DNA from: a virus
Lineage: Duplodnaviria; Heunggongvirae; Uroviricota; Caudoviricetes
Reading direction: 5' to 3' (one strand)
Virus record (IMG/VR): IMGVR_UViG_2778261574_000004
Span: 1-4,311 of that record
DNA: 4,311 nucleotides
This document shows, piece after piece, positions 1 through 4,311 of the stretch. Each line of letters begins with the position of its first letter. Position 1 is the stretch's first letter. The notes under the pieces were generated by a model, which saw only the letters and a program-made list of their open reading frames with translations, did no database searches and was not told the origin of the DNA. The position numbers were made by a program, and so were the translations under genes.

Positions 1-17
1 ACCTTGGTTTAAGAGAA
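1..17. other. Left DNA-invertase crossover site (hix/gix/cix-like), truncated by the window start; only the inner half-site GGTTTAAGAGAA (6..17), core TT (4-5) and 3 nt of the outer half are present
   Basis: Positions 1..17 ACCTTGGTTTAAGAGAA are the reverse complement of the inner half and core of the right site (4276..4292). The core dinucleotide is TT here versus AA at the right site, i.e. identical in inverted orientation as needed for inversion by a serine invertase. Confidence 0.6.
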
Positions 18-182
18 CTCGGTACCAGCGGTGAAAAGATCCCCTTGTTGAGCACGGCTAACACATGGAGTGCGCGCCAGACTTTCAACGGCGGGATCAC
101 CGGGGCACTGACAGGGAACGCCGATACCGCGACGAAATTGAAAACAGCCAGAAACATTAATGGCGTCAGGTTCGATGGTTCT
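1..182. repeat. Inverted repeat block A, left copy (pairs with 4111..4292)
   Basis: Direct comparison with the reverse complement of 4111..4292 gives 180/182 identical. The two mismatches (pos 45 T vs C, pos 107 A vs G) are both synonymous (Leu TTG/CTG, Ala GCA/GCG). Identity stops abruptly after the codons for FDGS (182). Confidence 0.95.
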
Positions 183-1565
183 ACGAACATTTCGATACCA
201 ACAATTACGTCTAGAGGACGCGTTACTGCGCTTACCGGTACAACGCAAGGTGCTGCTACTGGATTGCAGATGTATGAGGCATACAACAATGGTTATCCAA
301 CGACTTACGGGAATGTACTTCACCTGAAGGGAGCAGCATCCACTGGTGAAGGCGAGTTGCTCATTGGCTGGAGTGGCACAAATGGCGCTCATGCACCTGC
401 TTTCATTCGATCCAAAAGAGATAGCACTGCTGCGGCATGGTCCGAATGGGCGCAGATCTATACGTCAAAAGATTCAGTTCCCGGCGTCAATGCTAAAGGG
501 GATCAGGATACCTCTGGTAATGCGGCTACAGCGACTAAATTGCAGACAGCATGTACTATTAACGGTGTCTCGTTTGATGGTTCTAAAAATATTGAGCTAA
601 CGGCGGAAGATTTAAATCTTGAGCAAACCGTAGAATTAGCCGCTGGATCATTGCAGAAAAACCAGAACGGCGCAGATATTCCAAACAAAGATAAATTTAC
701 GCAAACAATAGGTGCTTGCCGCTCTTTTCATGGTGCTATTAGCACAGGTGCAGGAAACTGGACGACGGCACAATTGATTGAATGGCTGGATTCTCAAGGG
801 GCATTCAATCACCCATACTGGATGTGCAAATGTTCATGGTCATACGGCAATAATAAAATTATTACCGATACTGGCTGTGGAACTATTCATCTTGCAGGTT
901 GCGTTATTGAGGTTATGGGTAATAAAGGTGCCATGACCATCCGTGTAACAACACCAAGCACTTCCACCGGAGGTGGCACCACTAATGCGCAATTTACTTA
1001 TATAAACCATGGCGCAGATTACGCCCCAGGCTGGCGGCGCGACTACAGCACAAAAAACCAGCAACCTGCATTTGCTTTAGGGCAGACAGGAAGCACAGTT
1101 GGAAATGACAAAGCTGTTGGATGGAACTCAATTAGCGGGGTTTATAACGCAAATATTGGTGGAGCATCTACGTTAATTCTTCATTTTTATATGGGAGCTG
1201 GTAGTTGTCCGGCTGTTCAGTTCCGCGTGAATTATAAGAACGGCGGTATTTATTATCGTTCAGCGCGTGATGGTTATGGATTTGAGGCTGACTGGTCAGA
1301 GTTTTACACCACGACCCGCAAACCCTCTGCGGGAGATGTTGGTGCATACACGCAGGCAGAATGTAACTCAAGGTTTATTACAGGTATTCGCCTTGGCGGT
1401 CTGTCATCTGTTCAGACATGGAATGGTCCCGGCTGGTCTGACAGGTCAGGTTATGTCGTTACGGGTTCAGTTAACGGAAACCGTGATGAATTGATTGATA
1501 CAACTCAGGCAAGGCCAATTCAGTATTGCATTAATGGGACGTGGTATAACGCGGGGAGTATTTAA
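3..1565 (+). CDS. Tail fibre protein, variable C-terminal part A (5'-partial; frame enters from upstream of the window through the left crossover site; first in-window start candidate is TTG at 45; stop TAA 1563..1565)
   Basis: Long ORF (506 aa from TTG 45) whose frame stays open back to position 3 ([22 protein letters not shown]...). Two copies of a fibre-repeat-like motif GNAxTATKLxTAxxINGVxFDGS (nt 114..182 and 516..584), which I recall from lambdoid/P1/Mu-type side tail fibres. Gly/Asn/Thr/Ser-rich beta-type composition; C-terminal tip motif IRLGG...INGTWYN shared with the minus-strand fibre; immediately followed by a tfa gene. Confidence 0.88.
   Translation, partial: LGLRELGTSGEKIPLLSTANTWSARQTFNGGITGALTGNADTATKLKTARNINGVRFDGSTNISIPTITSRGRVTALTGTTQGAATGLQMYEAYNNGYPTTYGNVLHLKGAASTGEGELLIGWSGTNGAHAPAFIRSKRDSTAAAWSEWAQIYTSKDSVPGVNAKGDQDTSGNAATATKLQTACTINGVSFDGSKNIELTAEDLNLEQTVELAAGSLQKNQNGADIPNKDKFTQTIGACRSFHGAISTGAGNWTTAQLIEWLDSQGAFNHPYWMCKCSWSYGNNKIITDTGCGTIHLAGCVIEVMGNKGAMTIRVTTPSTSTGGGTTNAQFTYINHGADYAPGWRRDYSTKNQQPAFALGQTGSTVGNDKAVGWNSISGVYNANIGGASTLILHFYMGAGSCPAVQFRVNYKNGGIYYRSARDGYGFEADWSEFYTTTRKPSAGDVGAYTQAECNSRFITGIRLGGLSSVQTWNGPGWSDRSGYVVTGSVNGNRDELIDTTQARPIQYCINGTWYNAGSI
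438..619. repeat. Inverted repeat block B, left copy (pairs with 3677..3858)
   Basis: Reverse complement of 3677..3858 matches 438..619 with about 5 mismatches (about 97 percent), including perfect runs of 40-66 bp. Encodes WSEWAQ(I/V)[14 protein letters not shown](D/N)[16 protein letters not shown](C/R)[22 protein letters not shown] in both fibre genes. Mapping is left x to right 4296-x. Confidence 0.95.
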
Positions 1566-1567
1566 CG

Positions 1568-2101
1568 ATGATGCACTTAAAAAACATTACTGCTGGCAAC
1601 CCTAAAACAAAAGAGCAATACCAGCTAACAAAGCAATTTAACATCAAATGGCTTTATTCAGATGATGGAAAAAACTGGTATGAGGAACAAAAGAATTTCC
1701 AGCCAGACACTTTGAAAATGGTCTATGACCATAACGGCGTTATTATTTGTATTGAAAAGGATGTTTCAGCAATTAATCCAGAAGGCGCAAGCGTCGTTGA
1801 ATTACCTAATATTACAGCAAATCGCCGTGCTGACATTTCTGGTAAATGGATGTTCAAAGATGGCGTAGTGATAAAGCGAACTTATACCGAGGAAGAACAG
1901 AGGCAACAAGCTGAAAATGAAAAGCAAAGCCTATTGCAACTTGTCAGGGATAAAACCCAACTGTGGGACTCACAGCTACGGCTGGGCATCATTTCCGATG
2001 AGAATAAACAGAAATTAACCGCGTGGATGCTATATGCGCAGAAAGTAGAATCTACAGATACCTCCATCCTGCCAGTAACGTTTCCCGAACAACCAGAATG
2101 A
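1568..2101 (+). CDS. tfa: Tail fibre assembly protein (Tfa/U-type chaperone), partner of fibre A
   Basis: ATG at 1568 (second ATG at 1571) lies 2 nt after the fibre stop, with GGGGAG (1553..1558) as Shine-Dalgarno. 177 aa. C-terminus ...LTAWMLYAQKVESTDTS...PEQPE resembles the conserved Tfa C-terminal motif (recalled lambda Tfa ...LEAWKKYRVLLNRVDTS...). N-terminal ~100 aa about 70 percent identical to the minus-strand paralog. Confidence 0.85.
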   Translation: MMHLKNITAGNPKTKEQYQLTKQFNIKWLYSDDGKNWYEEQKNFQPDTLKMVYDHNGVIICIEKDVSAINPEGASVVELPNITANRRADISGKWMFKDGVVIKRTYTEEEQRQQAENEKQSLLQLVRDKTQLWDSQLRLGIISDENKQKLTAWMLYAQKVESTDTSILPVTFPEQPE

Positions 2102-2104
2102 GAA

Positions 2105-2131
2105 AAGGCCCGTTATCGGGCCTTATTTTTT
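2105..2131. terminator. Bidirectional rho-independent terminator between the convergent tfa genes
   Basis: Perfect 8-bp stem AAGGCCCG (2105..2112) / CGGGCCTT (2117..2124) with 4-nt loop TTAT and 6 GC pairs; followed on + by ATTTTTT (2125..2131) and preceded by GAAAA (giving a U-tract on the minus strand). Sits between the + tfa stop (2099..2101) and the - tfa stop (2130..2132). Confidence 0.7.
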
Positions 2132-2657
2132 ACTCAGGTTTTTGTGGCCATTCTGGCTTTGCCGTATCCACGCGGCTTACAAGAACGCTGTAGCGTTCCC
2201 ATGCTTCCAGTCGGCTGTGGTCCTCATCCGTTGCCATATTCAGCCTTACTGCACGCTCTAGTAGTTGAATGACTGATTCAGCATCAGCAAGAAGTCTAGC
2301 TTTCTGATTTTCTACCTGCTGCTGTAATTCCTCTGCCGTATAAATACGTTTAATAACTGCGCCATCCTTAAACATCCAGTTACCTGAAATGTCGGCACGT
2401 CGGTTAGCAGTAATATCCGGCACTTCAACAACACTTAATCCATCCGGTCTGATAGCTGTTACATCCTTTTCCACATAGCGGATGATGTTATCTTTGTCAT
2501 ACGCTAATTTTATCGTGTCATCCTGGAAGTTCTTTTGTTCCTCATACCAGTTTTTACCGTCTTCTGTAAAAAACCAGATGACATCAAAATGTTTCGTCAG
2601 CTGGTATTGCTCAACTGTTTTTGGATTACCCGCTGTTATATTGATCAAATGCTGCAT
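2130..2657 (-). CDS. tfa: Tail fibre assembly protein (Tfa/U-type chaperone), partner of fibre B; start taken at the ATG (revcomp of 2655..2657) 4 nt after the fibre B stop, not the upstream start at 2855 in the ORF track
   Basis: The 241-aa track ORF overlaps the fibre B 3' end by about 200 nt; the internal Met ([14 protein letters not shown]...) aligns with the start of the plus-strand tfa ([14 protein letters not shown]...). C-terminus ...[27 protein letters not shown] matches the recalled Tfa family C-terminal motif well. Confidence 0.85.
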
Positions 2658-2661
2658 AAAT

Positions 2662-4311
2662 TTAAACCTGTGCCACGTTATACCATGTTCCGTTAATATA
2701 TTTCTGTACCGGTCTATAATATACGCCACCAATGTTATCGGCAGAGTTTGAACCGGTATCCTGGACAATAATGCCGGAATAAACGCAACCTGACGGTGCC
2801 TGATGGGTCCATGTTGTGCCATTATTTGCAGGTTTGTATGATGATGCGCCACCAAGCCTGATATCCCTTACATAGCGGGAATCAAAGTTGCCATAATTAC
2901 CTGGGATAATTTGCGAACCGCAAAGCCAGTTACCGTTATTATCCATGTACGCCTGACCATCGGTGCCATTGGCTGTCCTTGAGTTATTAATCATGTAGAT
3001 GCCAAATTGCTTGTTCCCCAGTCCACCTATCATGAACTTGCGGTCAACGTGATTCTGGCGAAGCAACGCCTGAGCGCTATCTGTATTAACTATATTTTTC
3101 CCAAAGATAGCGTTGTTATCGCGCATCTGAATCCACATACCATTACTGCTGTTAATAGCAAAACGGTCTGAAAGCGTCTCTCCTGAAACATTAAGTCCGC
3201 GTCCCATAGAAACTGCGCCAGTGGCATTATTAATCCATAATGGTCTTAATCCGTTATAAGTCCCCATGTTGTCACCGGAGTTTGTCAACATGAAGTATGT
3301 ATTTGAACCATCATTACGGATAAAAAACCCGTAATTACCATAAGCAATACGGAGGCCGTTTGCTGATTTTGATATTACTTCGCCATTTATAATGGCGTTG
3401 ATAAGAACATACAAAGCATCCCATTTAAGATTCATCAGGTCTTTTGTTGTAGTGCTTTGTTTGCTTCTCCATTTGAAATATTCATTGCCGTTGTCGCCTG
3501 TTTCAAACCACATGAATGAATCAGTATCGCTGTCGGCATCATTTTTAAAACCAATCTTCGCCCAATCAGTATTTCGAATCCAGGCAAGGATTGAGTCATT
3601 TTCAAAAGTAAGCCCGCCGGACAAGATATCGCCTGAACGCTGAACGGCATTATTTGCTTTATTAATGAATTCCTGTAAATTTAAATCTTCCGCCGTTAGC
3701 TCAATATTTTTAGAACCATCAAACGAGACACCGTTAATAGTACGTGCTGTCTGCAATTTAGTCGCTGTAGCCGCATTACCAGAGGTGTCCTGATTCCCTT
3801 TAGCATTGACGCCGGGAACTGAATCTTTTGACGTATAGACCTGCGCCCATTCAGACCAGTTGGCAGAATCAGTATCCCGCCGCGAACGGATATGTACTGG
3901 CGCATGGTCACCACTCGTGCCACTCCAGCCAATGAATAACTCACCTTCGCCAGCAGCGGTGGCACCTTTAAGGTGAAGCACATTGCCATAGGGGGAAGGG
4001 TAGCCATTGTTGTATGCCTCATACAGCTGAATCCCGGATGTTCCCTGTGCATTCGCCTCCAAGGCCGTTACGCGACCGCGTGATACCAGAGTATTGATAT
4101 TAATGTCACCAGAACCATCGAACCTGACGCCATTAATGTTTCTGGCTGTTTTCAATTTCGTCGCGGTATCGGCGTTCCCTGTCAGCGCCCCGGTGATCCC
4201 GCCGTTGAAAGTCTGGCGCGCACTCCATGTGTTAGCCGTGCTCAACAGGGGGATCTTTTCACCGCTGGTACCGAGTTCTCTTAAACCAAGGTTTTTGCGA
4301 ATTGCCTCCGT
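2662..4311 (-). CDS. Tail fibre protein, alternative variable C-terminal part B (5'-partial or silent copy; frame open from the window end through the right crossover site; first in-segment start candidate is TTG at 4245..4243; stop TAA revcomp 2662..2664)
   Basis: 527 aa from TTG. The first ~46 aa are identical to fibre A, the next ~85 aa about 70 percent identical, the next ~60 aa nearly identical (block B), and the remaining ~330 aa unrelated except the C-terminal tip (IRLGG...[11 protein letters not shown]). Same two fibre-repeat motifs (revcomp coordinates 4111..4179 and 3712..3780). The frame upstream of 4245 reads ...[22 protein letters not shown] with no stop to 4311. Confidence 0.88.
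3677..3858. repeat. Inverted repeat block B, right copy
   Basis: See left copy. The 3-nt offset difference from block A reflects one extra codon in the diverged patch on the plus-strand gene (255 vs 252 nt). Confidence 0.95.
4111..4292. repeat. Inverted repeat block A, right copy
   Basis: Reverse complement matches 1..182 with 2 mismatches; mapping is left x to right 4293-x. Confidence 0.95.
4276..4301. other. Right DNA-invertase crossover site, 26 bp: TTCTCTTAAACC-AA-GGTTTTTGCGAA (imperfect dyad around a 2-bp core)
   Basis: Seen in sequence: two 12-bp imperfectly inverted half-sites flank a central AA at 4288-4289. From memory it closely resembles the Hin/Gin/Cin/Pin site family (recalled hixL: TTCTTGAAAACC AA GGTTTTTGATAA). 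It sits exactly at the outer boundary of inverted-repeat block A. Confidence 0.75.

Follow-up and report, generated by a model that had tools for sequence, protein, structure and literature searches.

The sequence analysed here, hereafter the window, is a stretch of 4,311 nucleotides from a Caudoviricetes record in IMG/VR (IMGVR_UViG_2778261574_000004, positions 1 to 4,311), whose two ends form an inverted repeat of about 620 bp. It matches pRHB23-C01_3, a 96-kb IncY phage-plasmid of Escherichia fergusonii, at 4309 of its 4311 positions, and the annotated C-segment of phage P1 aligns with it at 88.7% identity across 96% of its length. By these matches the window is evidently the invertible host-range C-segment of a P1-family phage-plasmid, which makes the 620-bp feature the known inverted repeat of that segment. 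Phage-plasmids of the P1 family are widespread in Escherichia and Salmonella, where they carry resistance genes, and the fibres of P1 are being engineered for DNA delivery. In P1 the C-segment, a Cin/cix system, consists of a 3-kb unique part between inverted repeats of 0.62 kb, and the 0.62-kb length of these repeats was reportedly described by Iida et al. (1982) and Hiestand-Nauer and Iida (1983).

The window carries two convergent open reading frames (ORFs) for fibre ends, each followed by a chaperone gene of the Caudo_TAP family, with a hairpin between the two sets (Table 1). The fibre reading frames are open inward from the cix crossover sites on both arms of the repeat. The constant N-terminal part of the fibre lies outside the segment, and the two alternative C-terminal parts, each with its own chaperone, are placed in opposite orientations and in frame with it. 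With the left arm next to the constant part of gene S, the distal part SvL would be expressed, and after inversion SvR. The hairpin is GC-rich, flanked by T-runs on both strands and located between the convergent chaperone genes, so that it is likely to be a bidirectional terminator. Homology to phage Mu begins at 619-649 and stops at 3633-3635.

Table 1. Features of the window, numbered from its first nucleotide
Feature	Position	Strand	Description
Left cix, inner part	1..17	+	Last 3 nt of the outer half-site, TT core (4-5) and inner half-site GGTTTAAGAGAA
Block A, left arm	1..182	+	Encodes LGLRELG..., first conserved motif box; 96-99% identity family-wide
Direct-repeat motif box 1	114..191	+	Partner box 2 at 516-593; 73% identity; 402 bp apart
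Patch, left arm (pL)	183..437	+	P7-type allele; predicted fibre-shaft beta domain of 85 codons
Block B, left arm	438..619	+	Encodes WSEWAQ..., second motif box; houses the junctions of L098 (see text)
Inner repeat boundary	613..624	+	With 3668-3679 (reverse complement AATTTACAGGAA), aligns to the Mu gix inner half-site GGTTTACAGGAA
SvL, distal fibre part	620..1565	+	Tip of gp37_C type (Pfam gp37_C); homologous to Mu and P1 Sv'
Tail-fibre assembly chaperone U'	1568..2101	+	Pfam Caudo_TAP, E = 2e-36
Terminator-like hairpin, likely bidirectional	2105..2124	.	Between the convergent gene sets
Tail-fibre assembly chaperone U	2130..2657	-	Pfam Caudo_TAP, E = 7e-34; annotated coding sequence in L002
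SvR, distal fibre part	2662..3676	-	Gp34_trimer domain (Pfam PF21446, E = 4e-37)
Block B, right arm	3677..3858	-	Counterpart of 438-619
Patch, right arm (pR)	3859..4110	-	P1-type allele, 84 codons; 98% identity to both P1 arms
Block A, right arm	4111..4292	-	Counterpart of 1-182
Right cix	4276..4301	+	TTCTCTTAAACC AA GGTTTTTGCGAA; consensus of Hin/Gin/Cin/Pin type with 1 mismatch
Mosaic tract	151-650		99-100% identity to L005/L026
Mosaic tract	601-900		99-100% identity to L025/L086
Mosaic tract	901-1150 and 1851-3150		99-100% identity to L024

Alignment of positions 1-640 with the reverse complement of 3651-4311 revealed a split repeat. The outer block A is identical between the arms at 180 of 182 positions, with mismatches at 45/4248 and 107/4186, and the inner block B at 176 of 182 (96.7%), with mismatches at 443, 456, 501, 509, 552 and 618. 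Between them lies a patch of 255 nt on the left and 252 nt on the right, where nucleotide identity is 165/257 (64%) and protein identity 55/85 (65%). An initial annotation of the window had given the same identity for block A, about 97% for block B and a patch differing by one codon in length, and direct counting confirms all three. It had also called the patch diverged, which it is, but its estimate of about 70% protein identity was too high. Compared with the patch, mismatch density is lower in both blocks (Fisher p = 2e-22 for block A and 2e-18 for block B). The longest exact inverted match spans 75 nt, and shuffled sequences (n = 100) reach at most 18 nt. Both borders of the patch had been described as sharp. 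This is accurate for block A, which stops exactly past the FDGS codons (the serine codon being 180-182), but identity returns less abruptly at about 438; within the patch, divergence is lower towards the 3' end than towards the 5' end, and the stretch 267-626 was reported as 83% complementary. The outer and inner limits of the feature (1-619) fit the repeat of P1, but the continuous near-identity of that repeat is missing. Since identity is interrupted by a 255/252-bp stretch at 64%, the feature is a variant, and not a typical member, of the P1-type repeat.

The near-identity of both blocks extends to synonymous sites, as had been claimed: the proportion of synonymous differences is 0.045 in block A and 0.07 in block B, against 0.83 (saturated) in the patch. 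These values bear on the idea that the blocks are alike through purifying selection on fibre motifs alone, with no process acting at the DNA level. The blocks do encode the conserved TATKL...FDGS boxes, in which, together with the core of the patch domain, near-invariant residues concentrate. Yet synonymous sites are saturated in the patch although half of its residues are conserved too. In addition, our survey of 77 IMG/VR loci and selected plasmids and phages found arms to be closer within an element than between elements, with a median of 0 against 6 differences in block A (p = 4e-5) and 7 against 11 in block B (p = 0.02). Several elements carry private variants on both arms, and in P1 and the element L024, which share such variants between their arms, the arms are 100% identical. 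Protein constraint alone is evidently already contradicted by the synonymous sites, and we consider it extremely improbable. Arm-to-arm homogenisation across the P1 family, on the other hand, appears real from these comparisons.

Two crossover sites of 26 bp in inverted orientation, each with a pair of 12-bp half-sites about a 2-bp core, bound the segment. The right cix lies within the window, where it is the sole match to the consensus (0 matches in 200 shuffles). The remainder of the outer half-site of the left cix lies directly upstream of the window, and in the phage-plasmid locus L002 the full site reads TTATCCAATACC TT GGTTTAAGAGAA, in agreement with the annotated cixR of P1 including the crossover position. 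A search of the window that allowed up to 3 mismatches found no further cix-like site, of the kind that permits nested site-specific inversion in the Min system of p15B. Comparison of RHB23-C01 with RHB23-C02 (L002 and L003), both from one sheep-farm sample, showed identical flanks and an inversion of the whole segment, the first and last differences being at 45 and 4248. Because this mismatch pair moved with the segment, the crossover occurred in the outermost 44 bp, that is, at cix. Nine more members of the lineage are colinear with the window in either orientation, both orientations are seen among L094-L103, and the normal fibres of 973 and 995 amino acids (aa) are encoded on 22 and 23 contigs, respectively. 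The routine switch is inversion of the whole segment at cix, and not at block B.

According to the initial annotation, a crossover joining the two copies of block B should flip all of the segment but the patch and produce chimeric fibres, and exactly such a product is carried by a member of the window's lineage. This element, L098, is a 78-kb contig of the E. coli assembly GCA_012825095.1 that runs through both cix sites, and it was retrieved through an exact-protein index. Its flanks show 0 differences in 2.1 kb from those of an ordinary member, L095. Its inner part (456-3743 in window coordinates) is inverted and differs from the window by one base, and its blocks A and patches have stayed in place, both patches with 0 differences from the alleles of the lineage. 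In the arm beside the constant part of gene S, left-type bases occupy positions 45, 107, 125 and 151, the whole patch, and 443, 456, 501 and 509; this arm is then right-type at 552 and 618 and onwards into SvR. The arm on the invertase side is right-type through 443 and left-type from 456 on into SvL. The junctions fall in the intervals 444-455 and 510-551, both inside block B, and the sites 456-509 are left-type in both arms. Block B contains no cix-like site; variable junctions in extended homology, a conversion tract and the lack of a specific site are what general homologous recombination leaves. We read L098 as having arisen by a single crossover of block B with its inverted copy, accompanied by a conversion tract at 456-509, an interpretation for which the base-by-base pattern argues strongly. 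The resulting hybrid fibre of 996 aa is identical to the deposited protein EFL7689464.1, and the silent partner ORF is EFL7689461.1. In PLSDB, INPHARED and the complete E. coli genomes of RefSeq no recent block B recombinant was found, and the three close relatives present there are all ordinary.

A second contig, L093 (JAVDCS010000087.1, assembly GCA_036633895.1, 864 bp), starts as the long arm of phage P7 and from 561 continues as the distal part of the P7 short arm. The switch lies within 501-560, making this a candidate block B recombinant in a P7-like element, but in so short a contig an assembly mis-join could also explain the pattern.

It could be argued that both contigs were mis-joined by short-read assemblers in cultures of mixed orientation, and that the arms never recombine in block B. 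Both do come from draft assemblies, cultures of such lysogens are expected to contain both orientations, and L093, which has just the length given above, begins exactly at cix and spans a repeat. L098, however, would need two mis-joins, one within 12 identical bases (444-455) and one within 42 (510-551), and a k-mer graph cannot change path within 12 nt. The longest stretch shared in block B (553-617, 65 nt) was not used in it, and the non-reciprocal tract 456-509, with left-type sites in both arms, is typical of gene conversion. For L098 a mis-join is unlikely, and an artefact as the whole account of the two contigs has a low probability.

Sliding comparison showed that the whole segment is a fine mosaic of tracts with 99-100% identity to different elements (Table 1). 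The left patch has 99% identity to the long (left) arm of phage P7 and 100% to the IMG/VR elements L005/L026, and the left-arm patch is evidently an allele swapped in by homologous exchange with another P1-family element. Since the left arm matches L005/L026 over about 151-650, the imported tract would cover block B besides the patch. The near-identity of the blocks had been put down to either homogenisation at the DNA level or a recent mosaic origin, and both seem to have contributed, through the imported P7-type allele and through the arm-to-arm homogenisation seen family-wide.

Such mosaicism raises the question whether the arms of one element need to recombine with each other at all, since every combination, including that of L098, might have been produced by exchange between co-resident P1-family elements. 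The fine mosaic of the segment and the match of the left patch and block B to L005/L026 are in keeping with this. So is the comparison of related segments, which had been suggested as a check on whether the patch varies independently: patch alleles and distal parts are found family-wide, in unrelated lineages, in all combinations. In L098, on the contrary, every informative site is of the left or right type of its own lineage, and its patches and flanks show no difference and its inner 3.3 kb only one. Its parents are hence the two arms of this element and not a foreign donor, and the combination of reciprocal exchange and conversion tract is what a single crossover of one block B copy with the other would leave. 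We regard family-level mosaicism as an improbable explanation for the whole pattern, and prefer the crossover between the element's own arms.

Shorter exchanges between the arms are suggested by changes in block A. T125 and G151 are the sole differences of the window from 12 lineage relatives across 4292 bp, and both are the base of the partner arm; the change at 151 replaces I by R in the first motif box. This pair fits an arm-to-arm conversion tract of 27-75 bp within 108-182. Likewise, L103 has the partner-arm state at 45 (45C), and the deposited fibre P0164 (HFP4107896.1) joins the left-type I50 to a P1-type patch. Taken together, these block A changes fit short conversion tracts. Homogenisation seems to be strongest near cix and weaker inward, and this inward fading may stem from exchange between copies of the plasmid that lie in opposite orientations and have long flanks in common. 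Among elements with uniform repeats (L085, L086, L089, L090, L022 and L035), the arms usually show 100% identity in block A and the patch, but only 91-96% in block B.

The survey also places the split repeat in its family. Of about 15 lineages with two arms, 10 have a uniform repeat and about 5 a split one, the latter being the window's lineage, L005/L026, L013, phage D6 and pCFSAN004178P_01. The alleles change over at 182/183 in every element surveyed. Alleles of the D6 type are sub-mosaics of P7 and P1 types, with crossovers at the conserved islands YEAYNNGY and IGWSG. The right arm of P7 (L083) lacks a patch stretch of 94 residues and retains both TATKL...FDGS boxes, 22 residues apart, which means that the two alternative fibres of P7 differ by the presence or absence of the patch domain. 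From the fixed changeover point, the sub-mosaic alleles and the short arm of P7, the patch looks like a discrete shaft domain that a fibre may have or lack. Short arms of this kind were also seen in L006_R, L016_R and L091_R. Deletion of one 402-bp inter-box unit was considered as the origin of the P7-type short arm but does not fit in detail, as 282 bp (94 codons) are gone and both boxes are retained.

An AlphaFold model of the patch has six beta strands, with a predicted local distance difference test (pLDDT) score of 70-82 over residues about 90-150 and a mean of 62. Neither by sequence nor by fold did any solved structure match the patch significantly (best match by fold T4 gp34, E = 0.26), and the only matches were predicted tail-fibre proteins. 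We call the patch a shaft domain and assign it no further function. In another lineage, the E. coli protein P0138 (ELA3575110.1, 972 aa) has a different N-terminus, after which come a patch of P7 type, the proximal part (Gp34_trimer) of an end of SvR type, a third box (TATKLQTAR...FDGS) and a tip of SvL type, so that the TATKL...FDGS box recurs there as a module junction.

The enzyme expected to act at cix is encoded beside the segment. An invertase gene (L002 8366-8947, + strand) lies 74 bp past the right end of the window, and its product has Resolvase (E = 8e-44) and HTH_7 (E = 4e-15) domains. It shares 60% identity with Cin and 61% with Gin of Mu and reads away from the segment, opposite to P1; it is not a Cin orthologue. 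A remnant of cin is present at L002 9080-9304 (- strand), about 0.8 kb past the window, and encodes 74 aa with 91% identity to the N-terminus of Cin. The invertase gene sits between cix and this remnant and seems to have taken the place of the 3' two-thirds of cin. The enhancer sequence of P1 is kept at 67 of 72 positions in the remnant, about 0.9 kb from cix, and a second, weaker enhancer match (44/69) lies at the 5' end of the invertase gene.

The observations are best explained, with a probability that we put at roughly 0.85, by a C-segment with unequal arms that switches at cix and is occasionally inverted by homologous recombination in block B. Each arm encodes the stretch of the shaft between the outer cix and the place that gix occupies in the G segment of Mu, and from the arm beside the constant part of gene S the frame runs on into the distal, receptor-binding part that belongs to that arm. 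The adjacent serine invertase would flip the segment as a whole at its pair of cix sites, giving the frequent switch between fibres of 973 and 995 aa. Two boxes (TATKL-TA--ING--FDGS) bracket the 85-codon shaft domain, which is of P7 type on the left and P1 type on the right, the left allele having arrived by homologous exchange with another P1-family element. The flanking blocks may have remained near-identical through DNA-level conservation across the family together with arm-to-arm conversion, strongest at the outer end. Because block B is still 97% identical and inverted, general recombination could occasionally cross over within it. Such a crossover would invert only the inner 3.3 kb, so that each patch would be joined to the opposite distal part and a third and a fourth type of fibre would result. 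Of this scheme, the sequences show the anatomy, the inversion at cix, where the alleles came from and one natural block B recombinant with its conversion tract. We infer a need for RecA or a phage recombination function in this exchange, as well as its rate and the ability of the hybrid fibres to assemble and bind.

Several points weigh against this explanation. The block B recombinant rests on one contig of one short-read assembly. An exact look-up in the protein collection returned none of the seven other simple crossover fibres, so that the event is rare, at about 1 in 46 sampled; the window's own predicted fibre was absent as well. An exact 101-nt pattern, searched for in genome, viral and metagenome contigs, gave no match, and the precise record from which the window derives was found in none of the collections. 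The evidence for arm-to-arm homogenisation of block B in this element is mixed, its left copy having 2 differences from the left arm of L005 and 5 from its own partner arm. The changes in block A could instead be polishing artefacts in repeats. The role of the patch in the fibre is put forward provisionally, as the model is of moderate confidence and no solved structure matched it significantly.

A bolder extension would be a switch with four states, in which fast inversion at cix picks the arm and slow inversion at block B re-pairs the shaft domain, the boxes serving as joints kept alike at the DNA level through arm-to-arm conversion and exchange across the family, and the hybrids being functional and aiding host-range evolution of P1-family phage-plasmids. 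We consider this a speculative scheme, more doubtful than probable.

The whole 620-bp repeat is the C-segment repeat of P1, which has long been known and which the initial annotation had not recognised, and the window is not a new kind of system. New, as judged from the sequences compared, are two things: the arms of the repeat are unequal in one shaft domain, also in the published phages P7 and D6, and the inner block evidently supports a second, homologous route of inversion to hybrid fibres, caught once in nature. No description of the unequal arms of P7 and D6 was found in the literature searched, which did not extend to the first papers on P1 (Iida 1982, Lobocka 2004). Homologous recombination within the repeats of P1 is invisible because the arms are identical, and unequal arms expose it, so that they provide a simple natural reporter for site-specific against homologous inversion. 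The lineage described here is a natural case in which a shaft domain and a receptor-binding end were re-paired by a single crossover between known parents, and the motif boxes may mark safe junctions for the building of hybrid fibres.

The closest known system is P1. The two segments share the gene order (with fibre ends Sv' and Sv and chaperones U' and U), the cix sequence on the fibre side, the length and inner boundary of the repeat, and inversion of the whole segment at cix. The arms of P1 (AF234172) are uniform, with 100% identity over about 558 bp and a few mismatches at the inner end only, whereas those of the window differ in the 255-bp stretch; the window also differs from P1 in its divergent, outward-reading invertase and the retained cin remnant. 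P7 resembles the window in that its long arm has the window's left patch allele (99%), but its second arm lacks the patch domain. D6 has unequal arms as well (patch 68.6% identical), but its variant allele combines the P7 type with the P1 type.

Tail-fibre genes in general are reported to evolve as mosaics at conserved boxes (Sandmeier 1994; Haggard-Ljungquist et al. 1992), and the 'His boxes' of T-even phages are such boxes. The window is like these genes in that its module borders lie at conserved boxes, the TATKL...FDGS box being found at the junctions of unrelated mosaics. It is unlike them in that the boxes are inverted within one element, as a consequence of which exchange yields inversion, and in that the recombinant was observed inside one clonal lineage in which the two parents are known. 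As in the Min system of plasmid p15B and the shufflons, more than two fibre variants can arise from one locus. Those systems have several sites for site-specific recombination, whereas the window has two cix sites, and its extra variants would come from homologous recombination in a 182-bp block.

The G segment of Mu (Gin/gix) is related through the core of the window (620-3676), which is homologous to it at about 86% identity. The inner half-site of gix aligns with the inner ends of the repeat, and the invertase has the same orientation to the segment. In Mu, however, the crossover sites lie directly at the ends of the core, in short inverted repeats, whereas those of the window lie 0.62 kb outward, which duplicates a shaft-coding stretch in inverted orientation. 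Since the inner ends of the repeat match both the start of Mu G homology and the gix half-site, the arms can be viewed as shaft-coding DNA bounded by a vestigial gix on the inside and by a cix placed further out, and the C-segment resembles a segment of G type in which the crossover sites have been shifted 0.62 kb outward.

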